From: Phycisphaeraceae bacterium
GTDB lineage: Bacteria; Planctomycetota; Phycisphaerae; Phycisphaerales; UBA1924
DNA: 46,111 nt
NCBI GenBank assembly: GCA_009827215.1
Contig: WUAJ01000001.1
Location: forward strand, 1 to 46,111
Direction of reading: 5' to 3'
The position numbers and the translations under genes are program-made. The notes under the pieces were generated by a model that saw only the letters and a list, made by a program, of their open reading frames with translations, had not been told where the DNA came from and ran no database searches. Positions 3,413 through 36,386 of this stretch are shown here, piece by piece (the stretch's first letter is position 1; each line of letters starts with the position of its first letter).

Positions 3413-4634
3413 GGCGCACGCGCACATCTTTCAGCTTGGTCGATCGTTGACGATGCTCGACTGCTCGCAGTGCACATCGCGCGAGGCGATGATCGAAGCG
3501 ATCGCTGAGCACAGCCAAACCCTCAAACCCGATCAATGGGTCCTCGCACACAGCGCTCGTCCAGAGGCATGGAGTGATACTCGCTGGCCATCGCGTCAGG
3601 AGCTTGACCACGCGGCGGATGGCCGTCCTGTGTGCGCGTGGTGCTTCGATTACCACGCGCTTGTCGCTTCGAGCAGCGCTCTTGAGCACGCGAAGATTGA
3701 TCAGCAAACGACAATCGATCGCGGGATCATCGAGCTTTCGCACGACGGTACCCCGACCGGTGTCCTCTACGAACTCGCGGCACTGCGCCTCTGGGACTCT
3801 GTCCCCGAGCCCGATGCCGATGCTCGCAAGTCACTCGTGCTCAGCGCGTGCATGCACCTCGAAGCACTGGGATTCAACGAAGTCCACGATCTCAAGTCCC
3901 AGACTTGGCTCGGACCGCTGCTCGCAGAGCTCCGCAACGAAAGGCAGACCACTCTCTCGTTCGAACTCTTCCCGCTGATCCCCGATCTGGAAGCGACACT
4001 CGCGACGCGCGATCAGTGGGAATCGGATCAGCTCAAGCTCGCGGGAACGAAGATCTTCACCGACGGCACACTCAACTCGCGCACAGCGTGGATGCTTGAG
4101 CCGTACACCGATACGAGGACCACTGGCACCCCGATGATGACCCCATCGGAGATCGACGACGCGATGATGCTGAGCAAATCCCAAGGCCTGCCCGTCGCGG
4201 CGCACGCGATCGGGGACGGCGCAGTCCGCGCGGTCCTCGATTCGATCGAGCGCACGCAGTGCACGAACATGGGCGCGCGGATCGAGCATCTGGAGCTGGT
4301 CCACGATGAGGACATCACGAGGTTCGCTCAGCTCGGGGTGATCGCGTCAGTGCAGCCTTGCCATCTGCTTCCCGATATTGAGAGCTTGCGTGCGTGCTTG
4401 AGTGATCGTTTGGATCGTGTGCTCCCGCTGCGTTCGCTGCTTGAATCGGGATTGATCGCGGGAGAGTCGTTGCTGTTTGGTTCTGATGTCCCCATTGTCC
4501 GCGCCAACCACGAGGACTCATTGCAAGCCGCGATGCACCGCCGGCGCGTCGACATGGATGAATCGGAAGCGATCGGATTCGACCAGCGGCTCACGGAACG
4601 CGAATCGCTCGCGTGCTTTGGCAACTCTAGTTGA
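3405..4634 (+). CDS. Metal-dependent amidohydrolase (Amidohydro_3 / YtcJ-like), N-terminally short
   Basis: HxH motif AHAHIF at residues 5-10, then KIFTDGTLNSRTAW, AAHAIGDGAV, RIEHLELV and LFGSDVPIV, which match YtcJ-type amidohydrolases. The ATG overlaps the upstream stop by 8 nt. Confidence 0.8.
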   Translation: MREAHAHIFQLGRSLTMLDCSQCTSREAMIEAIAEHSQTLKPDQWVLAHSARPEAWSDTRWPSRQELDHAADGRPVCAWCFDYHALVASSSALEHAKIDQQTTIDRGIIELSHDGTPTGVLYELAALRLWDSVPEPDADARKSLVLSACMHLEALGFNEVHDLKSQTWLGPLLAELRNERQTTLSFELFPLIPDLEATLATRDQWESDQLKLAGTKIFTDGTLNSRTAWMLEPYTDTRTTGTPMMTPSEIDDAMMLSKSQGLPVAAHAIGDGAVRAVLDSIERTQCTNMGARIEHLELVHDEDITRFAQLGVIASVQPCHLLPDIESLRACLSDRLDRVLPLRSLLESGLIAGESLLFGSDVPIVRANHEDSLQAAMHRRRVDMDESEAIGFDQRLTERESLACFGNSS

Positions 4635-6528
4635 GCGGGATACGGAGCTCGAACTCCGCGCCGTGCCCTCGCTTGCGGACGAGCGACAGGTCACCCCCCA
4701 TCTCGATCGCAAGACCACGCGAGAGCGCCAATCCCAATCCAAGTCCGGAACGATCACGCATGGTTCCTGATGAACCACGCACGAACTCGCCGAAGATTTT
4801 GCGTCGATCGCGCGCCGGGACGCCCGGGCCGTGATCCGCGACGACGAGCAGCAATGAGTCGAATGCGACGGATGCATCGAGGTGCACGCGCAGATCGCGT
4901 TCTTCTTCGCTATCCCCGTCGCTGTTCCCGTCCCCCCCGGCGTATTTACACGCGTTGTCCATCAGGTTCATCACGATGCGTTCCACAGCGTGCGGATCCA
5001 GCGTCATCGTGCGCTCCGCGTCATCAGATGTGGAATCTGAGACGATGAGGTCCATCCCGAACTGCTCACCAAGGCGCGACATCGGCGGGACAATCCGCGC
5101 CATCATCTCTCCGACGCTGAGCGTCTGCTCGCCTTTGGGTTTGTCCTTGATGCCTTTCTGTCGCGAGATGCGCGCGTACTCGAGGACGTTCTCCACGATG
5201 CCTGTCAATCGATCGGACTCGCGTTTGAGAGTGTTCAGGTAGTCCTTGCGGACCGCTTCGTCAGTGACCATCCCGTCCGCGAGCATCTGAGAATACAAAC
5301 GGAACGTCGTCAGCGGCGTTCGGAGTTCGTGTGTCACCGCGCCCACAAAACGACCTCGTCGCGCCGAGAGCGTGAGCACTGTTCGCAGCACGATCCCCAC
5401 CGCGATCATCGCGCCGATGACCGCGATCCAGGTCACCATCATCGCAAAGATCGCGGGCGTGATCGAGTCCCCCTCGACCGCGATCGCTCCGCCGGGATGA
5501 AACGAGACGGGGATGGTTGCGAGGCGATAGCTGCTCGTCGCGGACTTGCTCTGAGGCTGCTCGACACGGATCGGTTGGAGCGTTGATGTCGGGAGCAGGT
5601 CCTCGATCGCGAGAATCAAATCACGCGAGAGCGTGGGCCAATCCAGCAGCACCCCCTGGACGATGTTCCGCCCGTCTTGATTGATCGTTCGTGTGAGGAC
5701 AAGCTCGGTCACGCCGTCGTCTCCGACGACCCAGCGTGGTTCGATCGCTCCGATCGAGACGGATGGAGCCCCTCCCACAATCACTTGATCCATGTCATTC
5801 GCGATGAACGCTTGCGGATCTGCTCGCGCGGCGCTCATTGATTCAATAAGCTCGCTAGATTGCTCGACTTCAGCACGCTCTGGTACGTTGCTCAACTCGT
5901 CGCTCTTGCGCGAGGCGCGTTTGTACTGCGCCAGATCCGCGATCTGCTGACGCGCCAGGTAATCCGCTTCCGATGCTGATTCGCTCTGAAGAACAACTCC
6001 GCTCCCGGCGGGATTTGATACAGCCGGTGTTTCCTCTTTGTTCTCGCGGGATTCGACATCTGCATCTGAATCATTCAAGGCGATGTCGTCGCTGTACCCC
6101 CTGGAGTTCTCCGCGACCTCCACAGCTCGGTCCAGCGTGCCCTTCGCTTGACCGCTCTCGTCGATCTCGAAGTATCCGACGTTGTACGAACCGCTATCGA
6201 TCCCGTTCCGTACGATATCTTGCATTCCCGGATCGTCGTGGCGCGCGTCGCTCGCAAATCCGTCGTCGAGCTTTGGCTGACTCTCTCCGATGAGGACTTT
6301 GTAATCCTGAACGGGACGAGCCGCTTCGAGCGCGATCATCGGTGCTAATCGAGAGTCCATGCGCCACAGCGCGAGTCGGATGACTTCTTGTCGCTGGTTC
6401 TCGGCGCGTGCCGTCGCGTTGCGTTCCTCGAGGATGTAGACTCGTGCACTCGCCCACCCAAGCACGGCGACGATGAGCAGCACCCCCGACCAGAACGCGA
6501 TCCAGAGCTTGTGACGAGCGGGATTCAC
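4627..6528 (-). CDS. Sensor histidine kinase with a large periplasmic domain
   Basis: 633 aa. N-terminal TM, about 340-aa acidic extracytoplasmic region, second TM, H-box VTHELRTPLTT and a HATPase_c region (DNACKYA...GLGLALSRGLA). The GTG start overlaps the response-regulator stop (GTGA). Confidence 0.9.
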   Translation of the reverse strand: MNPARHKLWIAFWSGVLLIVAVLGWASARVYILEERNATARAENQRQEVIRLALWRMDSRLAPMIALEAARPVQDYKVLIGESQPKLDDGFASDARHDDPGMQDIVRNGIDSGSYNVGYFEIDESGQAKGTLDRAVEVAENSRGYSDDIALNDSDADVESRENKEETPAVSNPAGSGVVLQSESASEADYLARQQIADLAQYKRASRKSDELSNVPERAEVEQSSELIESMSAARADPQAFIANDMDQVIVGGAPSVSIGAIEPRWVVGDDGVTELVLTRTINQDGRNIVQGVLLDWPTLSRDLILAIEDLLPTSTLQPIRVEQPQSKSATSSYRLATIPVSFHPGGAIAVEGDSITPAIFAMMVTWIAVIGAMIAVGIVLRTVLTLSARRGRFVGAVTHELRTPLTTFRLYSQMLADGMVTDEAVRKDYLNTLKRESDRLTGIVENVLEYARISRQKGIKDKPKGEQTLSVGEMMARIVPPMSRLGEQFGMDLIVSDSTSDDAERTMTLDPHAVERIVMNLMDNACKYAGGDGNSDGDSEEERDLRVHLDASVAFDSLLLVVADHGPGVPARDRRKIFGEFVRGSSGTMRDRSGLGLGLALSRGLAIEMGGDLSLVRKRGHGAEFELRIPLN

Positions 6529-7235
6529 GAGTCATCCCCATCCGGATCCGCGAGCATGTAGCCCTTGCCTCGCACGGTTTTGATGACCTCGGGATTCGAT
6601 GGATCGTCTCCGAGCGATTCGCGGATGCGCGCGATCGCCATGTCCACCGTTCGAGTGTGCGTCCCGCGCGGATCGACTCCCCAGACTTTCTGCAATAGCT
6701 CGTCGCGCGAGACCGCTCGTCCGGGATTGGACGCAAGGAAACCGATGACCTCCGCCTCGCGTTCGGTGAGCGTCAATCGCGTCCCATCGCTGAGCACGGC
6801 TTCTCGGCGGTCAAAGTCCAGCTGTCGCCCCGCGATGGTGATCTTCTTCCGCTGCGATGGACGAGCGGGAACGCGCCGGAAGACCGCTTCGATCCGCGCG
6901 ATCAGCTCGTCAAGCGAGAACGGCTTGACAATGTAATCGTCCGCGCCGAGCTTGAGTCCTCCGATGCGATCCGTCTCCTCGCCTCGTGCAGTGAGGAATA
7001 TCACAGGGACACCGGGTTTGGGTTTGCGGAGTTCCTTGAGCACCGCGAGCCCGTCCATTTTGGGCATCATGATGTCGAGCAGCACGAGGTCCGCGTCGAC
7101 GCTCAGGCAGAGCTCTAAGCCCTGCTGACCATCGCTTGCTTCGTGGACGGTGTATCCCGAGAACGACAACGCATCGACCAAGCCGCGCCTGATCGAGTCG
7201 TCGTCCTCCACAACCACCAATACACCTTGTGACAT
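6525..7235 (-). CDS. OmpR/PhoB-family DNA-binding response regulator
   Basis: 236 aa. Receiver domain (VVVEDDDSI...LLDIMMPKMDG...TARGE...GADDYIVKPF) plus winged-helix C-terminus (VRGKGYML). AAGGAG lies 6 nt upstream of the ATG. Confidence 0.95.
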   Translation of the reverse strand: MSQGVLVVVEDDDSIRRGLVDALSFSGYTVHEASDGQQGLELCLSVDADLVLLDIMMPKMDGLAVLKELRKPKPGVPVIFLTARGEETDRIGGLKLGADDYIVKPFSLDELIARIEAVFRRVPARPSQRKKITIAGRQLDFDRREAVLSDGTRLTLTEREAEVIGFLASNPGRAVSRDELLQKVWGVDPRGTHTRTVDMAIARIRESLGDDPSNPEVIKTVRGKGYMLADPDGDDS

Positions 7236-7263: not shown

Positions 7264-8778
7264 TTACCATGAATAGCGGACGGTGTAGGTCACGGTCTCT
7301 TCTTCATCGACATCCAGCGACACCGGGATGTGCATCGTGCGCGCATCGAGCATGTCGTAGTTGTGCGAGTGCTTCTGGATGTCTGCGTTGGTCCAGCGGT
7401 AGAGGCGTTCTTGCACCACCACATCGACCGGCTCGTCCTTGCGATTGCGGAGCTTGACCTCGATGGTCTCGACGATCCAGCGTTTCCCACGCTCGAACGA
7501 GACCTGTCGGCGTTCTCCCACGACATCAAAAGCGTTGCCGAGCTTGATCATGATCTCCTCTTCGCGCGGAGTATGGTCGATGACGTGCTCTCCGATGAAC
7601 TCGAATGCGCCGTCCGCTTGGTCTTTCTGATTGACGCGCATGCGCCCCGATGGCATCGGGATCCCGAGCCCGTTGTCCTCGGAGTTCTCGAACTTGAGGT
7701 AGACCTCGACCTTCGAGTTGGATTGGACACCCCAGTTCTGGTCCATCATCGCGGAGTTCCCAAACCACTGTGCTTGCGCCGTCCCGTCGTAGAGCAACAC
7801 CTTCTCAGCCGGGACATCGTTGACGGCTTCGAACAGCTCGATCTGCTTGGTTGAACGATCCGGAATCGTGGTGGGTCGTCCGAGCGTGTAGAGGTGGTAC
7901 TCGAAGAATGATTTCTCCTCGAATCCCGCGGCTCCTGAGTCCTCCATTGCGTTCGCTCGCATGTAGGTCTCGACCTGTCTGAACTGATTCTTCGGCTGAG
8001 CTCGATTCACATCGCCCGCGACCAGTTTCAGTTTCGCGTTCTCGTAGGTCCCTCCCGATTGATTCAGGATCGAGACCCACGCGCCGACATCGACAGTTCC
8101 TGAGTTCGCATCGTCGCCGGGCGTGAAGATGAGGTTGTAATCCGCCCACCAGGTGATCCCGGTGGTCTGGTACGACACGCGTGTGTCATGCTCACCACCA
8201 GTCGCGGCGTTCACCTGCCACATCAGGGTTGGTTTGGTGACCAGCGATTCATCGAGCGATGGGAAGACCACTCCCGCGTACCCCTGCTGGAACTGCACGC
8301 GTCCGTCGTCTCCCTGGAGCAGCATGCCTCCGCCTGCTGTGGACATGAGGGTCATCTCTTGTCCGCCATAGATGATTTTCTGATCGATGTAGCGTTCGAG
8401 CATGCGATCCATCGAGAGCAGATCGAAGCGGTAGTCCTGCTCAAGCACGCTCGTCCCATCTGGATCAGTCAGCGAAGAGAACTGGACCGTCGTCGGATCG
8501 AGCAGCGCCGCGACATCGGTAAAGCTCAGCACGCTGAGTCCTTGATCGATGTCGAGCGTCCGATCCTGACGGATGACCGCGTATCCAGGGATCTGGTTGT
8601 ATCGGTTGTAGCCGTAGCCGTAGGACTGTCCCGGGACTGGTCGGTACCACTCCGCCGGGACCGCGCCAGGGGTCGCGGTGGAGTAGATCGTCAGTGCGGT
8701 GTCATCGGCGAGCGTGGTCTGGAGGATCGCGGTCGATGCGAGCAGTCCGGCGATGTGTGCGATTCGTGTGTTCATCAT
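7264..8778 (-). CDS. DUF4139 domain-containing secreted protein (MuiA-like family)
   Basis: 504 aa with a signal peptide. The core VSYQTTGITWWADYNLIF...VGAWVSILNQSGGTYENAKLKLVAGDVNR matches the DUF4139 signature as I remember it. Confidence 0.75.
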   Translation of the reverse strand: MMNTRIAHIAGLLASTAILQTTLADDTALTIYSTATPGAVPAEWYRPVPGQSYGYGYNRYNQIPGYAVIRQDRTLDIDQGLSVLSFTDVAALLDPTTVQFSSLTDPDGTSVLEQDYRFDLLSMDRMLERYIDQKIIYGGQEMTLMSTAGGGMLLQGDDGRVQFQQGYAGVVFPSLDESLVTKPTLMWQVNAATGGEHDTRVSYQTTGITWWADYNLIFTPGDDANSGTVDVGAWVSILNQSGGTYENAKLKLVAGDVNRAQPKNQFRQVETYMRANAMEDSGAAGFEEKSFFEYHLYTLGRPTTIPDRSTKQIELFEAVNDVPAEKVLLYDGTAQAQWFGNSAMMDQNWGVQSNSKVEVYLKFENSEDNGLGIPMPSGRMRVNQKDQADGAFEFIGEHVIDHTPREEEIMIKLGNAFDVVGERRQVSFERGKRWIVETIEVKLRNRKDEPVDVVVQERLYRWTNADIQKHSHNYDMLDARTMHIPVSLDVDEEETVTYTVRYSW

Positions 8779-8826: not shown

Positions 8827-10050
8827 TCAATCCTCGGACAAGCCGACTTTGTCTTCTTTCGAATCTTCTGTGCCGCTCGTGATCGTGAGCCCGATCGATT
8901 CGCCTTGTTTCTGGAGGGTGATGAGCACCTGCATGTCGAAACTGTCGCCCTTCATCGAGGCGCGGGCCTTGTCCTGATGGTCTCGGCGCAGCTTCGCGAG
9001 TTCCGCGAGTCTGGATTCAATCTTCACACGCTGCTCGTTGTTCTCCGCGATCAGCTTCTTGAGCTCGTCTGTGGTTTTAGACTGGTACTCCTCAGGGAGC
9101 TCGTCCTTCTCCACATCCTCGAGCGCGACGCGTCCATCGACGACATCATCGACGAGTTCTTTGACGCCGTAGAGATTCGATCGTCCCGCCGCGGTCTGGT
9201 TGTAGATCGCGCGATCCGCGGACGCTTCAGGGGCGGCGCTCGATGAAATCTTGATGGCGCGATCACGCTTGGATTCTTGATACAGAACCTCGTCGCGCGA
9301 GCCGTAGTCGATCATGAGCGATGTGAGCTGCTGGTCCAGCTCTGTGATCTCCTGATCGTATGGAGTCGTGATCCGCTGCACACCTGAGTCCTGATCGATC
9401 GCGGCGTATTGCCCGTTGGTCAGTCCCGCGATCTTCGTCCAGTGGTCTTTGGTGCCGTGGAGATTCCCGCACTGGATTGTGTTGACGATGATCCCCTTCT
9501 CTGCCGCAAGCTTGCACGACGCTTGGTACTTCACATCGTCGTCGTACCCCATCTGAGGCGGCGCATCACCCACAAGGAACACGATCTTCAGTGTGCTCGG
9601 ATCATCCGACCAATCGAACCGTTCCACGGCTTCAAACAGCGCCTCGTTCACGCTCTCGGGAGTGTCTCCGCCGCCCCCCGCTTCGAATCCCATCAGTGTT
9701 TCGTACACCGTGTCCAGATCATCCGTCATCGTGGTCTTGGTAGTCACATACTGATCCCCGCGATCGCGATACCCGACGAGTCCCATCCGGATCTCCGGAG
9801 CGGGCTGTGCTTGCGAGATCGTTGATGCGATGGACCAGATCTTTTGTTTCGCGCCTTCGATCAAGCCGCTCATCGAGCCGGTGGTGTCTAGGACGAAAAC
9901 GACCTCGACTTTCTTCTGTTGCTGTTGCGAAACACCCTTGCAACGGACAACAGTGCTTCCTGATGGTCTCGGTGTTCGATCCATCGCGGCGTGTGAGAGT
10001 CCCGCGGCTAGTGCGAGCGTGAGTGCGAGTGCTGTATGAGTGCGTTTCAT
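8827..10050 (-). CDS. Secreted von Willebrand factor A (VWA) domain protein with coiled-coil C-terminus
   Basis: MIDAS motif VFVLDTTGSMS. Signal peptide MKRTHTALALTLALAAGLSHA. Start trimmed from 10101 to the ATG at 10050, which has AAGGAG upstream. Confidence 0.85.
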   Translation of the reverse strand: MKRTHTALALTLALAAGLSHAAMDRTPRPSGSTVVRCKGVSQQQQKKVEVVFVLDTTGSMSGLIEGAKQKIWSIASTISQAQPAPEIRMGLVGYRDRGDQYVTTKTTMTDDLDTVYETLMGFEAGGGGDTPESVNEALFEAVERFDWSDDPSTLKIVFLVGDAPPQMGYDDDVKYQASCKLAAEKGIIVNTIQCGNLHGTKDHWTKIAGLTNGQYAAIDQDSGVQRITTPYDQEITELDQQLTSLMIDYGSRDEVLYQESKRDRAIKISSSAAPEASADRAIYNQTAAGRSNLYGVKELVDDVVDGRVALEDVEKDELPEEYQSKTTDELKKLIAENNEQRVKIESRLAELAKLRRDHQDKARASMKGDSFDMQVLITLQKQGESIGLTITSGTEDSKEDKVGLSED

Positions 10051-10132
10051 CGAATGGTCTCCTTGCGTTGGGGGTGACGGCGTTGTTGCCAACCGTCCCA
10101 CGTCAATAGATACCGTTCGATTGCGTCTTGTA

Positions 10133-10203
10133 TCGTCACAACTGTGTCACACAATCACAGTGTCACACGCGCGTCACAAAGATGTCACAACAGTGTCACG
10201 GCG
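10133..10203 (-). repeat. Array of six GTCAC(A/G) direct repeats (TGTGAC on the operon strand), mostly in 11-bp register
   Basis: GTCACA begins at 10135, 10146, 10162, 10173 and 10184, and GTCACG at 10195. A degenerate ATCACA sits at 10154. The array lies 85-150 bp upstream of the VWA start codon. Confidence 0.8.
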
Positions 10204-10231
10204 ATGTGCGTTCAACAATCAGAATCAGTGA

Positions 10232-11620
10232 TTACTCTGAGCTGCGAACGATTAAACCATGCGGCAAGAAAATTGCAACAATCCCTGAGATCGACAGCAA
10301 GACCGCTGTGACTGTGAACGCGGCGTCGAGACCGAACCCATCCATCACGCGCTGTGCGGATGAATCTGGGAGCAGGTTCACCAGATCAATCACAAAGCTC
10401 GGCACATTGGGTTTCGCGTTGAGTCCGTTCTGCACGACCTCCGCACCCATCGGTCCGAGGAACGAGAGCATCCACGCGCCGCCGAGCATTAATCCAGACA
10501 CCAAACTGGTTCGGTGCGGGAGCAATCGCTGCGAGAGCGACAGACTCACCGGGATCGCGGCTCCGAATCCGATCCCGGACAACACCGCTGCACCCATCAC
10601 CATCCATCGACTGATGCTTGGATCTATTGCAGATAGTTGAGGGATCATCGCGATGCTGATCGCCCCGAGCATCGGGAGGATGATGAAGACCGCTTTCTCG
10701 AATCGCGCCGCGAGGATGAATCCGAGCGTGATGCCTCCGCCTCCCATCCCGACCTGCATGGATGCTTGGAGCGTGCCGTTGATCTGCGATGCTTCGATCC
10801 CGAGTTGTTCGGTGAGCTCAACAGCGTTGTGCTTGCTGAGCACGAAGCGTGATGCCCACTCGGTGAACAGATACACCAGCGCCATGTTGGTTGTAAACCT
10901 GAGCACGTTGCTCGCGTAGAGCACCCACACCCCGATCCATCGTTGTCGACGCTCGTGCGCATCCCATCCGACCTGATGCTCGTGCGCGCCGTGATGACGG
11001 TGTCCGGCTTTATGGATCGCAATCGATAGAAACAATGCCGCGAGCAGACCAATCGGGATGAACCAGCGGATCGCGAGCAAGCCCTGCTTTGAGGCCTCTG
11101 TGTTGAGTTTCTCCGGAGTCATCCAGTCCACATACATCGGAGTGAACACATTGCCCACGATCCCCCCCACCATTCCCGCGAGGAAGAAGAGCGCGACATA
11201 CTTCGATCGCTTCGCGCCCCCGAGCTGTCCGACCGTCGCGGCGGCGGGAGGATGGAACGCGCCGACCCCCATCGCGCCGATGCTGTAAAGGATCGCGAGC
11301 TCGGTAAAATCCCGTGCCATCCCGAGATTCCCGATGCACAGCACCGCGATCACAAACCCCGCCGTCCCGAACGCTCGCGAGTCGTAGCGATCGCTCGCCC
11401 ACGCGACGACTGGTTGGATGACTCCGGAGCACACCGATCCCAGCGCCAGCAGGAGCGCCTTCTGCTCCGGACGGATCTCCAGCAGCACCGCGAGCATCGG
11501 GAGCAGCGCGATCCCGATAAACGAGAAGACATCAACGATAAAGTGCGCGCCGATGGTTACCGCGGCGCGGAGAGGCGCTCTGGTCGCGCCCTCTTTGATC
11601 TGCTGCTCGTCTGTACTCAT
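10232..11620 (-). CDS. MFS transporter
   Basis: 462-aa polytopic protein with about 12 predicted TM segments and MFS-like loops. Starts 5 bp after the ggt stop. Confidence 0.85.
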   Translation of the reverse strand: MSTDEQQIKEGATRAPLRAAVTIGAHFIVDVFSFIGIALLPMLAVLLEIRPEQKALLLALGSVCSGVIQPVVAWASDRYDSRAFGTAGFVIAVLCIGNLGMARDFTELAILYSIGAMGVGAFHPPAAATVGQLGGAKRSKYVALFFLAGMVGGIVGNVFTPMYVDWMTPEKLNTEASKQGLLAIRWFIPIGLLAALFLSIAIHKAGHRHHGAHEHQVGWDAHERRQRWIGVWVLYASNVLRFTTNMALVYLFTEWASRFVLSKHNAVELTEQLGIEASQINGTLQASMQVGMGGGGITLGFILAARFEKAVFIILPMLGAISIAMIPQLSAIDPSISRWMVMGAAVLSGIGFGAAIPVSLSLSQRLLPHRTSLVSGLMLGGAWMLSFLGPMGAEVVQNGLNAKPNVPSFVIDLVNLLPDSSAQRVMDGFGLDAAFTVTAVLLSISGIVAIFLPHGLIVRSSE

Positions 11621-11625
11621 GGCGA

Positions 11626-13401
11626 TCAGTCTATCCCGCTCGGACGACCACCCTTGCGTGGATCGCTCGCGGCTTGCCAGCCCTCACCATCACGCACGAT
11701 AATCTGGACATTGCCCACGACCGCGTCCTCACTACCGATGATCTGACCATACCCCCGCAACGGCGTTTTGAACACATTGAGTACAATAGTGTTGAACCCC
11801 GTCTCGAACTGTGTTTGATCAGGGAGCCATTGGTTGTGCAAGCGTGGACGGGATACCGCTTCACCGGCATTCATCCCGCCCATCACATTCAACAAGACTT
11901 GCATTGTCCCTGTGATGATCCGAGGTCCGCCGGACGCTCCGGCTATCGCGAAGACTTTGCCCTCTTCATCGAGCACAATCGTTGGTGACATGCTTGAAAG
12001 CGGGCGTTTGCCCTTCTCAGGGATATTCTGTTCGGACTGGACCAAGCCGAACGCGTTGCCTTTGCCGACTTTGCGTGGGTTGGTAAAGTCGTCCATCTCA
12101 TTGTTGAGACAGAACCCGAACTCCTTAACTCCGACTAGCGATCCAAACTCGAGATTGATTGTTTCGGTCATCGCAACCGCGCCACCGAACTGGTCGATCA
12201 CACTGACATGGCTCGTCCCGCCATCATCTTCGATCGGCGCAGATAGATCATCGTTGAGCTTTGTACCGTAGAAGTCTGGGCTTTGCCCGTGCAGATTCAG
12301 CTTCGACGCGAGATCTTGGATGTTGTCTTCATCAAGAAGCTGTTCAATCGGTACCTCAGTGAACATCGGATCCGCGAGGTAACGCGATCGATCTGCGAAC
12401 GCGTGCTTGAGTGATTCAATCAGCATCGCAACGCTGTCGGCATCCCGCTTAGCGCTTTGGAAGTTGTACCCCATTGCTTCCATAATCTCCAACGCTTCGA
12501 ACATCGTGACTCCCCCGCTGGATGGGGGAGGCATCCCGATTAGTCGCTTGCCGTTGATTACTGTCTCGATCGGTTTCATCTCGATCGGTTCGTATCCCGC
12601 GAGATCCTCGAGCGTAATTGGGATCGGAGTGCGTTTGGTGATCGGCTCAACCGTCAGCGTGTCCACGATTGCTTGACCGATCGCGCCCGTAGTAAATGCT
12701 TCCAAGCCGTGTTGTGCGATTAGTTCCAATGCTCGCGCGTGCTCTGGATTTCGGATCCGATCGCCGAGCTTCACCTGTCCCCAAAGCGTGAACTTCTTCC
12801 AAGGCATTCCCATCTCTGAGTCACGCAGCGCCGGGTTCTTGTGATAACGCTCGATGATTCCCTCAGCAGCATTCATGTAATGCTCATCAACGACGAACCC
12901 CTCCATCGCCGCGTCGATTGCGGGTTGCAAAACCGTCGCACGATCAAGCGTCCCGTACTCCTCTAATGCGTGGAGCAATCCAGCGACCGTCCCTGGGACC
13001 GCGACCGCGTAGCGTCCGTTCTTCATCGAATATCCGGATCGGTACCGACCCGCGTCCGCTGGAGAAGTCTCGCGATAGTTAATGGTCGTCAGCACACGCC
13101 CGTGCGTGGGATCGTTGGGGAGGTAGATGACCATGAACCCCCCACCTCCGATCCCGCACGAATAGGGACGCACCACAGAGAGTGCAAACGAAGCGGCGAC
13201 CGCGGCGTCCACCGCATTCCCGCCTTGTGCGAGCATCTGAGCGCCAGCCGCAGAAGCATCCGGATGATCCGCGGCAACCGCGGCTTTCGCGAATGTATCA
13301 AAGAACAGGTCCGCATCACGAACCGGAGCACTGGCGCACGCACTGCTGCAGAGCACACAGACTAGGACAAGAGCGCCTCGAAGCAAGATGATTGTATTCA
13401 T
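11626..13401 (-). CDS. ggt: Gamma-glutamyltransferase (secreted)
   Basis: 591 aa with a signal peptide. Autoprocessing/nucleophile region DDGGTSHVSVID, and C-terminal GASGGPRIITG, typical of GGT. Confidence 0.92.
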   Translation of the reverse strand: MNTIILLRGALVLVCVLCSSACASAPVRDADLFFDTFAKAAVAADHPDASAAGAQMLAQGGNAVDAAVAASFALSVVRPYSCGIGGGGFMVIYLPNDPTHGRVLTTINYRETSPADAGRYRSGYSMKNGRYAVAVPGTVAGLLHALEEYGTLDRATVLQPAIDAAMEGFVVDEHYMNAAEGIIERYHKNPALRDSEMGMPWKKFTLWGQVKLGDRIRNPEHARALELIAQHGLEAFTTGAIGQAIVDTLTVEPITKRTPIPITLEDLAGYEPIEMKPIETVINGKRLIGMPPPSSGGVTMFEALEIMEAMGYNFQSAKRDADSVAMLIESLKHAFADRSRYLADPMFTEVPIEQLLDEDNIQDLASKLNLHGQSPDFYGTKLNDDLSAPIEDDGGTSHVSVIDQFGGAVAMTETINLEFGSLVGVKEFGFCLNNEMDDFTNPRKVGKGNAFGLVQSEQNIPEKGKRPLSSMSPTIVLDEEGKVFAIAGASGGPRIITGTMQVLLNVMGGMNAGEAVSRPRLHNQWLPDQTQFETGFNTIVLNVFKTPLRGYGQIIGSEDAVVGNVQIIVRDGEGWQAASDPRKGGRPSGID

Positions 13402-13429
13402 GTGTCAACTATACGCGGCACAGATCCAA

Positions 13430-14773
13430 TTACCGATCGAGCTTGCGCCTTCGGACGATCCAGAAGCGATGATCCTCCGGATCAGGTCCCTTGCCGTCCT
13501 TGCCTCGTATGGGACCTCGGAACAGTGCTTTAAAAAATGCCTTCGTGCCGTTGACGACACGCATGATCCCTGTGCCACCCTCTCGTCCATCATGACGCTC
13601 GAGTCGATACCCAAACAGATGGAACACCTGCCTACGGAGCACGCACGCGAGATCCGCATCCACAAGCAGCGAAGAATCTTCACTGTGATACACCCCCGGC
13701 ATGATCCCAATCAGCTTGTGGACCCACCCCACACTACGGAGCCATGCTGAGAGATTCACCCAACCGCTGCTGACCCTGCGAACGATGAAGAACCCGTCAT
13801 CATTGATCCGCTTGTGTGTTTGCATGTTTGGAAGAAAGATCCGCCCGTGAATCGGGGAGTACACAGGTTTCCCAGCTTGCATCGCGATCTTCGTCTTTCG
13901 AGCGTGTACAGGAGTCCCCGCCTCGACGCCGGCACAGATCCTGAAGTCTTCGCTAGTGATCGGTTCACGATGGCGCACATCGTACACCACATGACCACGA
14001 TCCTGGGACTTCGATCGCATGTACGCGAAGTGGTCCTTTGGATGTCTTGAGAGTTCCACAACACCCGCCGTATCCAGCGCGATCCAGATCGCGGCTTCGT
14101 GCACATCGATCGACGCGGGATCATCGTGCTGCCCTCCCTCGACAAGATACGAGATGCATCCGAGCCGAGCGGTGACTGCATCGATCACCAAGCCGTTGGT
14201 TTCTTCTTCGATCCCCAGATACTTCGGACAAGGCATACGCATCGCGTGCACACGCGCCGGCAGCGAATCCTCGAACGCGACTACTGGCTTTGAAGGCGCA
14301 CTCGTTGTATGCAGATCGAGCACGATCATCTGCTGACCCGCCTGCTTGCACGATGCATGGATCGATTCGAGTGATCCAAACAACTCAAACATCTGCTCAT
14401 GCTCAGCGCTTGTTGAAGCGGGTTCACTAAAATGCTCGCGCTTGCACAAACGATTGAGATCATGATCGATGTAGCGTGTCTCGGGATCCTCGTGATTCAA
14501 TGCCGCGAGGTTCCCGGCGAGCACAATGAGTCGTCCACTGATATGCGCGTAGCGATCGGAGTGGAGTTGATCGAGCACGCGTTGTCCCGCGATGAGTCCC
14601 GCGCGCTCGTTCCCATGAACCCCGCCGAGCACGACAAGGGTCGTCCCCATGCTCGCATCACCCGCTCGACCGATCTCCCGCTCTGGGTATCGCTGAACGG
14701 CTGGGCTTGATTGCTCTGTTTGGACTTCGGTCATCGGCACGCACACACTCCGCGGGACTGAGCCAGTACTCAA
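13430..14773 (-). CDS. Succinylglutamate desuccinylase/aspartoacylase (AstE/AspA) family Zn hydrolase with C-terminal extension
   Basis: 447 aa. Zn-binding motif VVLGGVHGNERAG, then LIVLAGNLAAL and DLNR. About 120 extra C-terminal residues have no call. Start uncertain: TTG at 14773 or ATG at 14734. Confidence 0.75.
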   Translation of the reverse strand: MSTGSVPRSVCVPMTEVQTEQSSPAVQRYPEREIGRAGDASMGTTLVVLGGVHGNERAGLIAGQRVLDQLHSDRYAHISGRLIVLAGNLAALNHEDPETRYIDHDLNRLCKREHFSEPASTSAEHEQMFELFGSLESIHASCKQAGQQMIVLDLHTTSAPSKPVVAFEDSLPARVHAMRMPCPKYLGIEEETNGLVIDAVTARLGCISYLVEGGQHDDPASIDVHEAAIWIALDTAGVVELSRHPKDHFAYMRSKSQDRGHVVYDVRHREPITSEDFRICAGVEAGTPVHARKTKIAMQAGKPVYSPIHGRIFLPNMQTHKRINDDGFFIVRRVSSGWVNLSAWLRSVGWVHKLIGIMPGVYHSEDSSLLVDADLACVLRRQVFHLFGYRLERHDGREGGTGIMRVVNGTKAFFKALFRGPIRGKDGKGPDPEDHRFWIVRRRKLDR

Positions 14774-14783
14774 AATTCAAGGC

Positions 14784-16715
14784 TCACTCTGTATCATTGC
14801 CGCCGCGAAGCTGATCTTCGAGCAACTTCCCTGCAATCCGCATGTAATCGTGCTCAGTGACGATCCCCACGAGCTTGCCGTTCTCCAAGACCACTGGGAG
14901 ACACGAGGCGCGATGCTGCTTCATCAACGCAATTGCGTCGAGCGTCGGAGTCTCCGGCTGGACAGAGACCGGCTTGCGCTCCATGATGTCCTCGACCGCG
15001 ATCGAGTCGCTCTTGCGCTTCACAGGATCAGCGACCAAACGCAGTAATGCTCGATAGCTGACCAATCCGACCAGTTTGTGTTCGTCGTCTTCGACTGGGA
15101 TGTGGCGGATCTGCTCCCAATCCATGATCGAGGCCGCGAGATCAATCAGCTCGTCTTGCCGAACCGTAAAGAGGTCAGTCTGCATGTACTGACCCACAGT
15201 GGTGTAGTGGTGTCTCCATTCGCCGCATTCACGGATCTCCGCGACGCTCCATTCATGCACCGGCGTCCCGATCTGCTGCCTGGATATTGTGCCGGCAGTC
15301 AGCGTGCTCAATCGCTCAGCGCGTGTCCCTTTCTCATGGATGTGCGCGACCGAATCAATCATCCAGCGAGCGCCGTTGCGTCCCGTTTCCGTCCGCTCGG
15401 AGATGATGTCCATGTACTTGTTGATGTCCTGGTGATCGACCTGTGCCTCGCGGAGCCCTTCAATCGCAATCGGAACCAGCTCTCCCAGGATTAGATCACG
15501 AGTCGGGATGACTCTTCCATCGATCCAGCGAGATTTGTAGTCCAATCCTGATCGTGCTGCTGAGACGAAGTTCGCTTGCGCGTCGGCGAATGCCAGCCGT
15601 TCTGTTAGATCAGGATACAGCTTCGGCATGCGAGTCATCAAACCAAACCAGAACGCAGCGTTGGCAATCTCGTCAACAATTGTTGGTCCAGCAGGAAGCA
15701 CACGATTCTCGATACGCAGGTGAGGCTTGCCATCGGTAATCCCATAGCACTGACGGTTCCAGCGATAGAGCGTGCTGTTGTATGTTTGCAATGCCGAGAG
15801 TTTGGGGATCTCACCTCGCTGGACCATCGCAAGCGAGTCCTGCGTTGCATCCGCACGGAACATATTTCGGAATCGTGCGATATCTGCTTTGAACAACTCA
15901 ACAACGGATTCTTTGACCCACGATTCACCGAATCGCACACGCTTGAGCATGTCCCGCTGCGTAGGGATGTCCTGTCCGGATGTATCTACGGTCTGCTCGA
16001 AAACCGCGATGCGAGTCTCGTGCCAGAGTCGTTTGCCAAAGAGGACCGCGGAGTTTGCGGCGGCTGCCATCACCGGCGCGGTCACCGCTTGCGCGACATT
16101 GTACGAGATCGCAAAGTCCTCAGGAGTCACCTGAAAATGGAGTTGAAACGAAGTATTGAGCGCCTCGAGCATCACTGAATCGTGCGAGAAGTTGATCTCG
16201 TCGATCCCTTTGATTCGGATGTCGTAGCGTCCACCTCGCGCTTTGGTGATCCGCTCATCGAGCGCGTAGTACCTCGGCTTGGGAGTGATGTAGTCCTTGG
16301 ACAGATGCTGCTGCTGGAGCGTCGGGACGATCCCGATAAGGATCGGTTTCGCACCGAGCTTCTGCGAGACATCCTGCGCCTTGGTCATCAGCTCTTCGAG
16401 TTCTTTGTGCAGATCACGCAAGACCGATCCAGTGAAGACCTTCGGATCGCAGTTGAACTCCATGTTGAAGCGACCGATCTCTGTGGTCGCGCGGCGCTCA
16501 TGGAGCAGGTCGATGACCTCTGGACCCAATGGCGCTGGACGCATCGCATCATCGACGAACGCGAGCTCTTGCTCAGCGCCGATTCTGGTAATGCCTGTTT
16601 CGAACATGCCGTGTTCGATCATGTACTCAAACGCACGCAGGTCGTTGAGGACATCGTGCATAGCTGCGCGATGCTCATGTCCCCCACTCGCTTGGTCCAT
16701 TTCTTGAATGCCCAT
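14784..16715 (-). CDS. GCS2-family carboxylate-amine (glutamate-cysteine-type) ligase fused to a C-terminal CBS pair
   Basis: 643 aa. N-terminal about 470 aa resemble the YbdK/GCS2 family (RIGAEQELAFVD...). The C-terminus has two CBS motifs (VGQYMQTDLFTV...LVGLVSYRALL and VEDIMERKPVSV...LVGIVTEHDYM). Confidence 0.8.
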   Translation of the reverse strand: MGIQEMDQASGGHEHRAAMHDVLNDLRAFEYMIEHGMFETGITRIGAEQELAFVDDAMRPAPLGPEVIDLLHERRATTEIGRFNMEFNCDPKVFTGSVLRDLHKELEELMTKAQDVSQKLGAKPILIGIVPTLQQQHLSKDYITPKPRYYALDERITKARGGRYDIRIKGIDEINFSHDSVMLEALNTSFQLHFQVTPEDFAISYNVAQAVTAPVMAAAANSAVLFGKRLWHETRIAVFEQTVDTSGQDIPTQRDMLKRVRFGESWVKESVVELFKADIARFRNMFRADATQDSLAMVQRGEIPKLSALQTYNSTLYRWNRQCYGITDGKPHLRIENRVLPAGPTIVDEIANAAFWFGLMTRMPKLYPDLTERLAFADAQANFVSAARSGLDYKSRWIDGRVIPTRDLILGELVPIAIEGLREAQVDHQDINKYMDIISERTETGRNGARWMIDSVAHIHEKGTRAERLSTLTAGTISRQQIGTPVHEWSVAEIRECGEWRHHYTTVGQYMQTDLFTVRQDELIDLAASIMDWEQIRHIPVEDDEHKLVGLVSYRALLRLVADPVKRKSDSIAVEDIMERKPVSVQPETPTLDAIALMKQHRASCLPVVLENGKLVGIVTEHDYMRIAGKLLEDQLRGGNDTE

Positions 16716-32394: not shown

Positions 32395-33606
32395 TCAGAA
32401 GAGCAACTGGATCTGTGCGGTCGCGGCGAACTGACTCGACATCGAGTCAGGGAGCAGGTTGCCGCGGATCGACACGATCGATTCGGTGGTTGGATCCGCG
32501 TAGTGCTGGATTTCCAGTGTAAACTTCGCGGCGTGTGATTCTGGGATGATGTAGTGGTTCCATCCGAAGGTGAAGACATTGAAGTCTGAGTTGCCGCTTG
32601 TTCCAACGACGATTGGGTTGTTGTTGGATGGATCGATCAGATCCCATCGTGCAAAGAACTCGTCTTGATCTGAAACGAACACACCACCTTGCAGGATGTA
32701 TCCACCATCGGTGAGGGTCATGAGTCCCGTGTCCATCGAACGCCAGACCCCGGCGCCGTAGAGATTCCAGCCGTCTCCGAGGTACGACGCGTCCACTGTC
32801 GCGGTCGTCATGTCTGTGGTCGGAGTGGTCGAGGGGTTTGTGCTTCCCATGGCTTGGTGATGCACCGCGGCACCGAGCATGAGTCCAGTGTTAGCTCCCC
32901 TGAACGAGGTGAACTGCTTGTATTGACCCCAGGATGCTTCTCCGAACTTGAGCTCACCACGCAATGTCACTGCATAGTCGGCTTCAGCTCCTGAAGTGTA
33001 AAATGTGTTCTCAGCACCGAATCCGTCATTGAAATGCAGGAAGAGTCTCCAATCTTCCTCAGTGATGATGAGTTCGATCCCTTGCGTAAAGTCTTGGTTG
33101 TAGGTCTCGTTGACTGAAGAACGATCGGTTGCAAGCTGCTTGGTTGACGAGATATTCTCTTCACGAAGGAGCGGTGCCTTATATTGACCGGCTTTGATCG
33201 AGATGGTATCGGTGAGCTTCCAAGTAAGATTCGCATCTTCGAGTATCGCTCGACCACTGGATTGACTGAACGCGAACTTGACCTTGCCTTTGATCTTCTC
33301 GGTCACTTTCGCTTCGAGTCCAAACTTCGTTCGGCGGTTGGTGAACCCGACAGTCAGATCCTCTTCAGGACCCGCGAGCGTTGTGCTATCGTTGTCACGC
33401 TTGTTGACATTGTATCTGAACTGAAGCTGCACACTCGACTTGAATCGCTCTGGGAGTGGTGATCCGATCGCTGATGCATAGACATACTCTTCAGAATTCA
33501 TTGCCCTTGAAAGATCAAGCAGTTCTTCTCTTTCGGCCGCAATCGCTGTTGTTGAAAGTGATGAAGCTGTAGCGAGAAGGACAGCTGCCGTGGTGATGGA
33601 TTTCAC
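32395..33606 (-). CDS. Outer-membrane porin, phosphate-selective porin O/P (OprO/OprP)-like, paralog 1
   Basis: Signal peptide. GFTNRRTKFGLEAKV...LEDANLTWKL...IKAGQYKAPLLREENISSTK matches the Porin_O_P pattern. C-terminal ...QLLF. GTG start. Confidence 0.8.
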   Translation of the reverse strand: MKSITTAAVLLATASSLSTTAIAAEREELLDLSRAMNSEEYVYASAIGSPLPERFKSSVQLQFRYNVNKRDNDSTTLAGPEEDLTVGFTNRRTKFGLEAKVTEKIKGKVKFAFSQSSGRAILEDANLTWKLTDTISIKAGQYKAPLLREENISSTKQLATDRSSVNETYNQDFTQGIELIITEEDWRLFLHFNDGFGAENTFYTSGAEADYAVTLRGELKFGEASWGQYKQFTSFRGANTGLMLGAAVHHQAMGSTNPSTTPTTDMTTATVDASYLGDGWNLYGAGVWRSMDTGLMTLTDGGYILQGGVFVSDQDEFFARWDLIDPSNNNPIVVGTSGNSDFNVFTFGWNHYIIPESHAAKFTLEIQHYADPTTESIVSIRGNLLPDSMSSQFAATAQIQLLF

Positions 33607-33668
33607 ATCAGTCTCCAGTTTGTGGTGTGTTGGTCTTTACAGAGATCACATATGATCTTGACGAACGC

Positions 33669-33722
33669 TTTATAGTCTGTTGACAATCTGAATTGTTAAG
33701 AACTTGCGTTAATTGGTCTTAA
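33669..33722 (-). promoter_or_regulatory. Candidate Pho-type promoter for porin paralog 1: three TTAAxx hexamers plus TATAAA
   Basis: On the minus strand: TTAAGA (33722-17), 4 nt, TTAACG (33712-07), 7 nt, TTAACA (33699-94), 19 nt, TATAAA (33674-69). The hexamers resemble the TT(A/T/C)ACA direct repeats bound by Bacillus PhoP. Confidence 0.3.
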
Positions 33723-33774
33723 CACACTTTCAACTGACTTTGCTGCGACCACTTACGCGATTTTGAGATCACAC

Positions 33775-33809
33775 AAAAAAGAACGCGAGGGATCCGAAGA
33801 TCCCTCGCG
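33775..33809 (-). terminator. Strong rho-independent terminator after porin paralog 2
   Basis: 11-bp GC-rich stem CGCGAGGGATC/GATCCCTCGCG (33784-33809) with a 4-nt loop, followed on the minus strand by TTCTTTTTT. Confidence 0.85.
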
Positions 33810-33847
33810 TGTCACATCAGATGATGTTTGTGATCAGGTTCGCGAAC

Positions 33848-35185
33848 TCAGAAGAGGAGCGAGAACTGGCCACGGATTGTGAGTTCGCTCTCGATACCTG
33901 TAGCCGAACCCATACCGCCGATGTAACCGGTGGTAGCGGTGTCGTAGAAGCTACGGGTGTCAAGACCGGTGGAGTCGTCGAGACCGAAGCCGACATCCAT
34001 CGAGAAGCGTGCAGCGTAGGACTCTGGGACGAGGTAGTAGTTGAAACCAACGGTGATGGTCGAGTAGTGATCGTCGTCGGTTGCTGCGAGTGGAGTGATC
34101 GCTGCTGGGTCATCTTCGAGGATGATGATGTCGTAGCGACCGAAGAGCTCGAACTGCTCAGTCATGAACACATTACCCTGAAGGACGAAGCCTTCGTCGG
34201 TCTGGTCGACGCTACCACCAGCGAGGAGGTCGTTGTCAACATTGGTGCTCATGTAAGCAGCGAAGAGGCCCCATCCGTCGGACTCGTACTGAGCGTCGAC
34301 AGTCCATGCAGTGACAGTTTGGGTGTCGATTGCACCGAGGAGTGGGTTGGTGTCACCAGCTTGTGACCAGTGGAGACCAGCACCGACGCGGAAGCCGTCG
34401 TTCGAGCCCTGCCAGGAAGCAAAGTCAGCGAACTGATCCCAGTTACCCGAGACGAGCCAATCAATACGACCAGTCAGGGAGAAGTCTGACTCAAAGTTGA
34501 CAGCGGTACCGAGTGGAGCTGCGGTGTAGAAAGTGTTCTGTGCCACAGGTCCGTCGGAGAGCACGAAGGTGAACTTCCACTCGTCATCGGTGTAGTTGAA
34601 ACCGATACCTTGGGTGTACTGAACATCGAAGAACGAGTTGGTCAGTGAACGCTCAACGCCTTGTGAGTGCTCAGGAGCAACATTTGACTCGAAGTGCAGT
34701 GGGTTCTTCATTTGACCGAAGAGGAAGGTCCAGTTGTCATCGAGACCCCAGGTTGCGTATGCGTCACGGAGGGTTGCATCGCCATCACCAAATGTCGGAG
34801 TACCTGGACCAATACCAGCGCGGTTGCCGGTGCGGCCGTGGTCCCAAGCACCACCGAAGTCAAACGAAATGTGACCGGTGATGTCGGTACCTTCAACGCC
34901 ACCGCTCAAGCGGACTTGAGTGCGTGGAGCGGAGAAGCCAACAGTGGTGTCGGAATCGCCGAGGGCAGTACCTGGAGCGATTTCGTCGCGGCTGTTGTAG
35001 GTGTAACGGAACTGGGTGAACACTTCAACATCGAGGCTACCAGCGTTCGAACCGAGGAGGCTCGAGCGGGTGTTCGCATCTGCACGCAGTTCTGCTGCGT
35101 AAGCGCGATCGATGTCAAGTCCGGACTGAGCAAGCGCCGAGCCGCTCATGGTGACCAATGCGAGGGTCGTAATAGTCTTCTTCAT
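33848..35185 (-). CDS. Outer-membrane porin, OprO/OprP-like, paralog 2 (probable major porin)
   Basis: Signal peptide MKKTITTLALVTMSGSALA. LRDAYATWGL...FGQMKNPLHFE motif. C-terminal ...SLLF. AAGGAG 7 nt upstream. Strongly biased GGT/ACC/GCT/CGT codon use. Confidence 0.85.
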   Translation of the reverse strand: MKKTITTLALVTMSGSALAQSGLDIDRAYAAELRADANTRSSLLGSNAGSLDVEVFTQFRYTYNSRDEIAPGTALGDSDTTVGFSAPRTQVRLSGGVEGTDITGHISFDFGGAWDHGRTGNRAGIGPGTPTFGDGDATLRDAYATWGLDDNWTFLFGQMKNPLHFESNVAPEHSQGVERSLTNSFFDVQYTQGIGFNYTDDEWKFTFVLSDGPVAQNTFYTAAPLGTAVNFESDFSLTGRIDWLVSGNWDQFADFASWQGSNDGFRVGAGLHWSQAGDTNPLLGAIDTQTVTAWTVDAQYESDGWGLFAAYMSTNVDNDLLAGGSVDQTDEGFVLQGNVFMTEQFELFGRYDIIILEDDPAAITPLAATDDDHYSTITVGFNYYLVPESYAARFSMDVGFGLDDSTGLDTRSFYDTATTGYIGGMGSATGIESELTIRGQFSLLF

Positions 35186-35578
35186 TTCAGTGCTCCTTCT
35201 CGTTGGGCAGTGATTTGGAAATGTCTATTTGTCGGGCGAGCTGTATTCCGCACAACTCGTCTCTGGCCGATGATAGGCAGTGCTAACCATCGTGAGTCAC
35301 ATTATTCGACCTTTTGTTGGCACTAACTATCAAATTTGATCCCCTCAGGGTGAAAAATATCGGCTACACCTGCTCATGGCTCAAAAAACGCCAATTCGGC
35401 GCAAATCATGCATCGAAGATTTTGCGACTACCCACACGACACTCCGAATATAATGCGAACAAATATGCCGTAACCCACACTGGCGCAGAATGTTTGGATT
35501 CCGTGAACTCTGGTTTTGAGCTTCTCGGCTCCAAAACGCGACCTCTACGATTGGAACAACATTGATCCGGAGCGAAAA

Positions 35579-36307: not shown

Positions 36308-36386
36308 AAGTACGAAACATCCGAGCAACATGCTTGTATGGATCGATATCGTCCATAGAAGACTACCTATATAGTGTTCCACTGTT

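Follow-up and report, generated by a model that had tools for sequence, protein, structure and literature searches.

Several response regulators of the OmpR/PhoB family bind operators composed of direct repeats, and against these we compare here an array of six direct repeats in a 46,111-nucleotide stretch of DNA from a Phycisphaeraceae bacterium (Planctomycetota; contig WUAJ01000001.1, assembly GCA_009827215.1), the whole of which we refer to as the window. The array lies between the stop codon of an MFS transporter gene (10232) and the start codon of a minus-strand VWA-domain gene (10050), the first gene of an operon that also encodes an OmpR-type response regulator and its cognate sensor histidine kinase, and we argue that it is probably the autoregulatory operator of this regulator, with a proximal dimer site at −35 and two dimer sites further upstream. 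Half-sites of the (T/G)TTACA type are used by OmpR, RpaB, and Bacillus PhoP; in the Escherichia coli OmpR sites F1-F3 and C1-C3 and in the cyanobacterial RpaB element HLR1, they stand on the coding strand with a 10-bp period, and three dimer sites that adjoin one another, with six half-sites in all, lie upstream of the −35 region and extend into it in the case of E. coli OmpR. The core recognized by Streptomyces PhoP is of the GTTCACC type, compared to GTGAC at the present locus.

Published work on four regulators provides the closest parallels. Streptomyces PhoP recognizes 11-nucleotide direct repeat units, of which at least two are needed, and its class III operators contain up to six units that are filled cooperatively (PMC2275107). 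Cryo-electron microscopy of Mycobacterium tuberculosis PhoP resolved 2, 4, and 6 protomers on one to three PHO boxes (PDB 9KET/9KEU/9KEV; PMC11825685), arranged as tandem dimers, with the proximal box overlapping the −35 region and displacing the contact of sigma region 4 (PMC11825685). Actinobacterial GlnR boxes have the form gTnAc-n6-GaAAc, or GTnAC-n6-GTnAC in Streptomyces venezuelae, and the Streptomyces amtB promoter carries three such boxes, that is, six sites, which give faster and stronger activation than a four-site version (PMC5826061). Finally, the MtrA box of Mycobacterium comprises GTCACAgcg twice, as direct repeats, and is also found in oriC (PMC4285127), and the MtrA sites of Streptomyces read GtnAcC-n5-GTnAcn (PMC13189361).

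In the window, the repeat unit on the operon (minus) strand is (T)GTGAC(A/G), and six cores follow one another in the same orientation at steps of 11, 11, 11, 16, and 11 bp, starting at −149 to −89 relative to the ATG of the VWA gene. On the plus strand, GTCAC accordingly begins at 10135, 10146, 10162, 10173, 10184, and 10195 (steps of 11, 16, 11, 11, and 11 bp), and the gap between the MFS stop codon and the VWA start codon contains tcGTCACaactgtGTCACacaatcacagtGTCACacgcgcGTCACaaagatGTCACaacagtGTCACggcg. All six units have the GTGAC core on the minus strand. The distal block consists of R1, the most distal unit (10195-10199; about −99 to −95 from the inferred transcription start), R2 (10184-10188) and R3 (10173-10177), each 11 bp downstream of its predecessor, and R4 (10162-10166; about −66 to −62), which ends the block 16 bp upstream of R5. 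The proximal pair is formed by R5 as its upstream half (10146-10150; about −50 to −46) and R6 as the promoter-proximal half-site (10135-10139; about −39 to −35, in place of a −35 hexamer). The spacers are G+C-rich, as in GCGCG. R1 is invariant in the alignment of close relatives and recurs in the four-repeat distal blocks of 11 related loci (L001, L081-L087, and L208-L210). Reading of the sequence thus bears out what the first-pass annotation, made from the letters of the window, had described: six GTCAC(A/G) copies at these positions, 11-bp steps within the right-hand four and the left pair, a 16-bp offset between the two blocks, and a distance of 85 to 150 bp from the start codon, which matches the core starts given above. 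Its degenerate seventh copy, ATCACA at 10154, fared less well: the letters are there, but the relatives read AGTGAT, AGGGAT, or TCGGAT at this site and retain only GATTGT, so that it is not kept as a repeat.

It is the phasing of the repeats, rather than the hexamer itself, that sets the array apart. GTCACA is not enriched in the window (24 occurrences compared to 28.9 expected), whereas the phased pair GTCAC-N6-GTCAC occurs four times, always within the array, compared to 0.12 expected, and none of 100 shuffles gave four such pairs. In the 1.17 Mb covered by the window and 87 related loci, at least four identical 5-mers at 10- or 11-bp steps are found solely in this array and its orthologues; a more generic scan (any 5-mer at least four times per 120 bp) was too noisy and was discarded. 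The lone GTCACA sites at 16789 and 35296, which had been pointed out in other intergenic regions, both lack a partner at 11 bp, match the chance frequency, and are regarded by us as chance occurrences.

The best NCBIfam scores of the operon's regulator all lie below the cutoffs, with RpaB as its best match (218 bits, cutoff 330), PhoB at 183 bits (cutoff 296), and MtrA at 181 bits (cutoff 300), and its closest solved structures are RegX3, RpaA, and MtrA; it is thus an orthologue of no named regulator. Compared to E. coli OmpR and RpaB, the locus is similar in that distant members of the operon family carry GTTACA or TTTACA, but HLR1 itself was rejected as an identity for the array, which has an 11-bp instead of a 10-bp period and a GTGACA core with G instead of T as third base, and whose regulator falls short of the RpaB cutoff. 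Plasmid iterons likewise present several direct repeats in a noncoding stretch, but iterons measure 17 to 22 bp, whereas the units here are 11 bp with five to seven specified bases and sit in a conserved chromosomal promoter without replication context. The likeness to Streptomyces coelicolor PhoP extends to the 11-nucleotide period, the need for at least two adjacent units, and the number of up to six; binding of PhoP spreads cooperatively from well-conserved core units, and PhoP, itself of the OmpR family, also controls its own operon (PMC2275107). Yet the regulator studied here is not a PhoP/PhoB orthologue, its operon contains no phosphate genes, and an additional 5 bp (gaps of 16 or 27 bp) shift the distal block out of register with the proximal pair. 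The arrangement seen for M. tuberculosis PhoP matches the one that we propose for R5-R6 with R1-R4 as upstream boxes, although that system has been demonstrated structurally and biochemically, whereas ours is deduced from sequence, in a different phylum and with a different motif. GTGAC-N6-GTGAC literally fits the GlnR pattern GTnAC-N6-GTnAC; however, GlnR is an atypical orphan regulator of nitrogen genes, whereas here regulator and kinase are part of the regulated operon, whose other products are the VWA and DUF4139-like proteins. With MtrA, the array shares the hexamer GTCACA/TGTGAC and direct repeats at 11 bp from center to center, but the kinase reaches only 96 bits on MtrB (cutoff 450), the array stands at a promoter and not in oriC, and the MtrB/LpqB context is missing, with no LpqB-like gene among the genes of the window, which excludes the array from the MtrA boxes. 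In short, the element appears to work like the PhoP, GlnR, and MtrA operators while belonging to no Pho, MtrA, or RpaB regulon, because its regulator fails the orthology tests for these. The precedents nevertheless count in favor of an operator: units of 11 nucleotides, a need for at least two of them, operators of six units, and tandem dimers that replace the −35 element have all been described. Six to seven copies had been thought to exceed what a usual promoter carries, but six-site operators are documented in the OmpR family (PMC2275107, PMC5826061, and PMC11825685), and the high copy number calls for no new mechanism.

Conservation and geometry of the array

A scan of a genome collection by VWA protein alignment yielded only relatives with at most 62% identity, and closer relatives were taken individually. 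They comprise four close syntenic loci (L081-L084), with VWA proteins 94, 89, 83, and 80% identical to that of the window, and 11 further syntenic loci (L085-L087, L001-L005, and L208-L210) in which the operon regulator is 76 to 91% identical, the contig of L004 ending before the regulator gene. In the intergenic alignment of five genomes with VWA proteins 80 to 100% identical, core columns are invariant (30 of 30), compared to 20 of 35 spacer columns, so that the repeats hold up in the orthologous regions. Across all 15 syntenic Phycisphaerales loci, every GTGAC core but one (GTGAA in L001) is retained while the spacers drift. The 72 units from 13 genomes give the consensus nn(T)GTGAC(A/G)nn, with G, T, G, and A invariant (2 bits each), C present in 69 of 72 (1.75 bits), and 0.1 to 0.8 bits elsewhere. 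We interpret this unit as a lineage-specific variant of the (T/G)TTACA-type half-site of OmpR/PhoB-family regulators.

The layout is conserved as well. All 15 relatives have a distal block, a gap, and a proximal pair at an 11-bp step, the distal block containing four repeats at 11-bp steps or, in L002-L005, two. Exact cores come in even-numbered blocks in all lineages, be it 4+2, 2+2, or a single pair; L003 and L004 have an additional degenerate GTGAA 12 bp upstream of the distal pair. Between the starts of the two repeats that flank it, the gap spans 16 bp in the window, L081-L084, L208, and L209; 27 bp in L001, L003, L005, L085-L087, and L210; 26 bp in L004; and 37 bp in L002. These values differ by about 10 to 11 bp, and the blocks are thus always about n + 1/2 helical turns apart. 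Insertions and deletions in steps of 10 to 11 bp that keep the helical phase point to the constraint of a protein on B-DNA and not to coding or RNA. The plus-strand open reading frames at 10040-10231 and 10128-10640 were accordingly rejected as genes, since both the 11-bp indels and the contrast between cores and spacers are incompatible with coding. The 16-bp and 27-bp gap states are each found in lineages whose first operon gene is the VWA gene and in lineages in which it is a VIT-VWA gene.

A fixed distance links the array to a −10-like box. Exactly 27 bp separate the start of the proximal GTGAC from a downstream TATCTA/G-TATCT(A/C) box, both in the window and in each of the 15 relatives that bear the array; in the window, this box is found at 10107-10112 on the minus strand and is preceded by G. 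A G-TA(T/C)nnn box stands at the same 27 bp from the proximal repeat in 22 loci. The pattern GT.AC-N6-GT.[AG]C-N22-TA has 19 matches and zero background in 2.34 Mb (both strands of the window and the 87 loci): one in the window, one in each of 12 array loci, and one in each of six Planctomycetota loci, that is, exactly one per operon, at the 5′ end of each operon of this family. A scan of the region found no consensus sigma-70 promoter and no −35 hexamer, as would fit an activator-dependent promoter, and TATCTA is likely the −10 element, which would place the transcription start near 10100. Two other promoter readings were discarded, the sigma-54 reading of TGGGACGGTTGGCAAC for its wrong GG-GC spacing (judged by eye) and a reading of the extracytoplasmic function (ECF) type because its downstream half is not conserved.

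Directly downstream of the −10-like box, around the predicted start and early leader, lies a block, CGTGGGACGGTTGGCAAC (10085-10102, minus strand), that is conserved in the window, L081-L087, and L001, often shows partial TTGGC-N6-GCCAA symmetry, and is absent from loci with a VIT-VWA first gene; it could be a second operator or a leader element. The ribosome-binding site AAGGAG (10059-10064, minus strand) serves the first operon gene.

Co-occurrence with the operon and its regulator

All genes between 4.6 and 16.7 kb of the window are on the minus strand. The operon starts with the VWA gene (8827-10050), which encodes a protein of 407 amino acids that has a VWA domain (Pfam VWA_4) and in which the MIDAS-like motif DTTGSM is intact, followed by a gene for a 504-amino-acid protein (7264-8778) that has a weak DUF4139 match and is co-conserved in relatives. 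Next come the OmpR/PhoB-family response regulator (6525-7235; Pfam Response_reg, 8.5e-32, and Trans_reg_C, 2.3e-24), our proposed binder of the array, and its cognate sensor histidine kinase (4627-6528), with HisKA and HATPase_c domains and an uncharacterized N-terminal region of about 380 amino acids.

No syntenic locus with an operon regulator at least 76% identical to that of the window lacks the array, and VWA homologues without this regulator, mostly from Gammaproteobacteria and Desulfobacterota, have no array upstream. The array is kept in L085, where the MFS gene is missing, and it is also retained in L208-L210 and in the short contig L195, in which a VIT-VWA gene has taken the place of the first gene while the syntenic position is unchanged. 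Since it persists when a neighbor or the first gene changes, the array follows the operon and not its neighbors. L195 had been considered as a second regulon member and was rejected as such, being the same syntenic operon with another first gene. The VIT-VWA first genes of L208 (8001-10301), L209 (629-2995), and L210 (8001-10373) encode proteins of 766 to 790 amino acids, in place of the VWA_4 protein of the window (8827-10050), while chromosomal position, array, DUF4139-like gene, regulator, and kinase are as in the window; in more distant clades, VIT-VWA and VWA genes are both present, in tandem, a pattern which suggests that genes at the operon's head have been lost or replaced.

Six more distant Planctomycetota loci (L018, L022, L028, L034, L041, and L046), with an operon regulator that is 63 to 66% identical where it is on the contig, carry the 19-match pattern about 2.5 kb upstream of the VWA gene, before an additional VIT-VWA gene for about 800 amino acids that comes first in the operon. 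Their motif is GTTAC, and L034 reads CGTTACAAAGGCGTTACAGG...GTACAAC. Looser variants with the same geometry occur in L063 (GTTAC-N6-TTTAC-N22-TAGATT), in L017 (TTTACA-N5-TTTACA), and in L006 (GTTGC-N6-GTGAC, one base further from TAGAAC). We regard the element as the 5′ control region that an old operon family has conserved.

On the protein side, 14 array-bearing loci include the regulator gene; 11 of them share the identical recognition helix THTRTVDMAIARIRE, and L002, L003, and L005 have the close variant THTRTVDMTIARLRE. GTGAC goes together with regulators whose helix starts GTH-TRTVDMA, GTTAC with G(V/M)(Q/N/T)-TRTVDMA, and TTTACA with more distant regulators; just ahead of the helix, V/M and then Q/N/T stand in place of TH in the GTTAC clade. 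There is thus a hint that the regulator residues before the helix covary with position 3 of the core. Taken together, the comparison lends strong support to the initial proposal that the phased direct repeats are putative OmpR/PhoB-type sites for the operon's own regulator.

Regulatory model and competing explanations

If the array is the operator of this regulator, the kinase (4627-6528) would phosphorylate the regulator (6525-7235) and thereby lead to its dimerization, and the regulator would then bind pairs of units head-to-tail, with three dimers on R1-R2, R3-R4, and R5-R6. On R5-R6 (about −50 to −29), at a promoter without a −35 hexamer, it would recruit RNA polymerase as a class II activator, so that the operon would switch itself on in a case of positive autoregulation. 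The distal units R1-R4, which stand roughly half a helical turn off the register of the proximal pair, would add cooperative occupancy.

Several points weigh against this model. We infer both the identity of the binder and the sign of regulation from the sequence, and few independent evolutionary events underlie the covariation of motif and regulator. TATCTA matches TATAAT weakly, the promoter rules of Planctomycetota are not established, and a literature search for Planctomycetes promoter motifs gave nothing relevant. A scan found no terminator between the MFS gene and the array, which makes read-through from the MFS side possible. Our scans covered the window and related loci, and a wider regulon, hence another global regulator, is possible. 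Finally, the window encodes a second OmpR-family regulator, a PhoB-like protein (35516-36307), together with a PhoR/PnpS-like kinase, and TGTCAC, the complement of the unit, resembles the half-site of the proteobacterial Pho box.

A variant of the model, which we regard as doubtful, would see the distal block and the proximal pair as two functionally distinct modules, with dimers on opposite faces of the DNA, that form a two-threshold switch whose gain is tuned by the expansion of pairs. This placement could impose a bend or wrap on the DNA, or the distal block could be read by a second regulator, and the array would have grown from one pair, as in distant clades, through two pairs to the three of the window's clade.

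Alternatively, the operon's own regulator might bind the array but repress, through negative autoregulation or as a roadblock, with the true promoter elsewhere, for instance, in read-through from the MFS and gamma-glutamyltranspeptidase (GGT) genes. OmpR-family regulators can repress, and short gaps separate the MFS, GGT, and VWA genes, which share one strand, with, as said, no detected terminator before the array. We nonetheless find repression unlikely: the constant 27 bp to the −10-like box in 22 loci, with no −35 hexamer found by the scan, is the arrangement seen with an activator that stands in for the −35 element, and array and box persist without the MFS gene and in clades with quite different upstream genes.

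The main rival, which we judge equally improbable, assigns the array to a different OmpR-family regulator, most plausibly the PhoB-like one, as a set of Pho boxes (TGTCAC on the plus strand, 11-bp period) that would place the VWA operon in the phosphate starvation regulon. The half-site of the E. coli Pho box, CTGTCA(T/C) with an 11-bp period, does resemble TGTCAC, and the lone GTCACA at 35296 lies within the intergenic region between porin and regulator genes. The PhoB-like protein has PhoB as its best match, at 239 bits and below the cutoff; it stands beside a PAS kinase that resembles PnpS/PhoR (36387-37739) and two Porin_O_P-like, phosphate-porin-like genes (32395-33606 and 33848-35185), and the region from 32395 to 37739 is probably a phosphate system. 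However, phased pairs are found nowhere else in the window, not even in the promoter regions of the porin and PhoB-like genes, where Pho boxes would be expected first, and the intergenic regions of this system contain no phased GTGAC repeats. The Pho box consensus has a CTGTCAT-type core on the coding strand and A+T-rich 4-bp spacers, whereas TGTCAC is on the template strand of the VWA operon, opposite to classical Pho promoters, and its spacers are G+C-rich. With no phosphate genes in the operon and an operon regulator below the PhoB cutoff, this led us to reject membership among the Pho boxes. Moreover, distant members of the operon family have GTTACA or TTTACA at the same position, the complements of which are not Pho box-like, and the array co-occurs strictly with the operon's own regulator. 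As a lead only, the residue that would correspond to Arg201 of E. coli PhoB is Ser in the PhoB-like protein (HITSLR versus HIRRLR) and Arg in the operon regulator.

It is very unlikely that the array acts at the RNA level, as a structure or as reiterated motifs for protein binding within leader or intercistronic RNA, or that it represents a neutral minisatellite with an 11-bp period. Transcription that runs on from the MFS gene could bring the array into a transcript, and true 11-bp GTGAC minisatellites are common in metagenomes, as judged from the matches listed. Yet no Rfam match was found at an E value of 1 or below, folding is no better than for shuffled sequence (z = −0.08), the repeats are all direct, and, with TATCTA as the −10 element, transcription would start downstream of the array. 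The spacers of minisatellites are identical, whereas those of the array differ from one another and drift around fixed cores, and its indels in 10- to 11-bp steps keep the B-DNA phase.

Hardly conceivable, lastly, is the filament-nucleating array or iteron-like, origin-associated repeat once suggested by the first-pass annotation: the number of direct repeats (six) is the sole point of likeness besides the occurrence in oriC of mycobacterial MtrA boxes with a GTCACA core (PMC4285127), and against it stand the six-site operator precedents, a syntenic chromosomal site that in at least 16 genomes is fixed between the operon and a metabolic gene, neighbors (MFS, GGT, and VWA) that include no Rep or DnaA gene, a GC skew that is negative throughout the site without a change of sign, and an ancestral state of one or two pairs, as is typical for operators.

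The autoregulatory operator, as we probably have it here, would provide a clean, comparatively defined operator, along with a likely promoter, for an uncharacterized two-component system of uncultured marine Phycisphaerales (Planctomycetota). To our knowledge, almost no regulator-DNA pairs or promoter elements are known from Planctomycetota. The consensus nn(T)GTGAC(A/G)nn for the 11-bp unit is testable, and, with the geometry fixed at 27 bp to the GTATCT box, it can be used for a regulon search in complete genomes. The comparison also offers an evolutionary series, in which the motif passes from TTTACA over GTTACA to GTGACA and the number of pairs rises from one to three; the evolution of operator specificity and gain in the OmpR family can be studied in it.

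Similar repeats at other loci and neighboring genes

We also scanned metagenomes for four GTGAC at 11-bp steps. Among the matches listed, most are 11-bp minisatellites with identical spacers and many copies, and these matches hold no regulon information except for L195, the VIT-VWA variant of the same locus mentioned above. Also among the matches listed, four arrays look like operators and not like minisatellites, with four to nine GTGAC at 11-bp steps and variable spacers: L106 (7667-7704), L137 (minus strand, about 2906-2990), L191 (about 10555), and L167 (about 8107). Another OmpR-type regulator (36% identical) and its kinase are encoded about 300 bp downstream of the L106 array, and the GTGAC-N6 operator type may be used by other regulators, too.

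Repeats with other cores were seen next to VWA genes or regulators of more distant bacteria. In a Desulfobacterales locus (L019), TTTTACA occurs three times at 11-bp steps (6823-6850), about 90 bp upstream of the VWA gene, and in a proteobacterial locus (L036), three GTAAA at 11-bp steps (5756-5782), CpxR-like in sequence, stand beside a divergently transcribed regulator. Most gammaproteobacterial loci have an OmpR-type regulator (40 to 45% identical) and a kinase in divergent orientation, about 1.3 kb upstream of the VWA gene.

Upstream of the array in the window, a same-strand cluster (11626-16715) encodes a GCS2-CBS protein (glutamate-cysteine ligase-like), an AstE/AspA-like deacylase, the gamma-glutamyltranspeptidase, and the MFS transporter, and most relatives have this GCS2-to-MFS cluster conserved directly upstream of the operon, in the corresponding syntenic regions of L081-L087, L208, and L210. 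Directly downstream of the PhoR-like kinase, the gene at 37822-40380 encodes a large 7TM receptor whose extracellular domain is of the 7TMR-HDED type and whose intracellular domain is an HD hydrolase.

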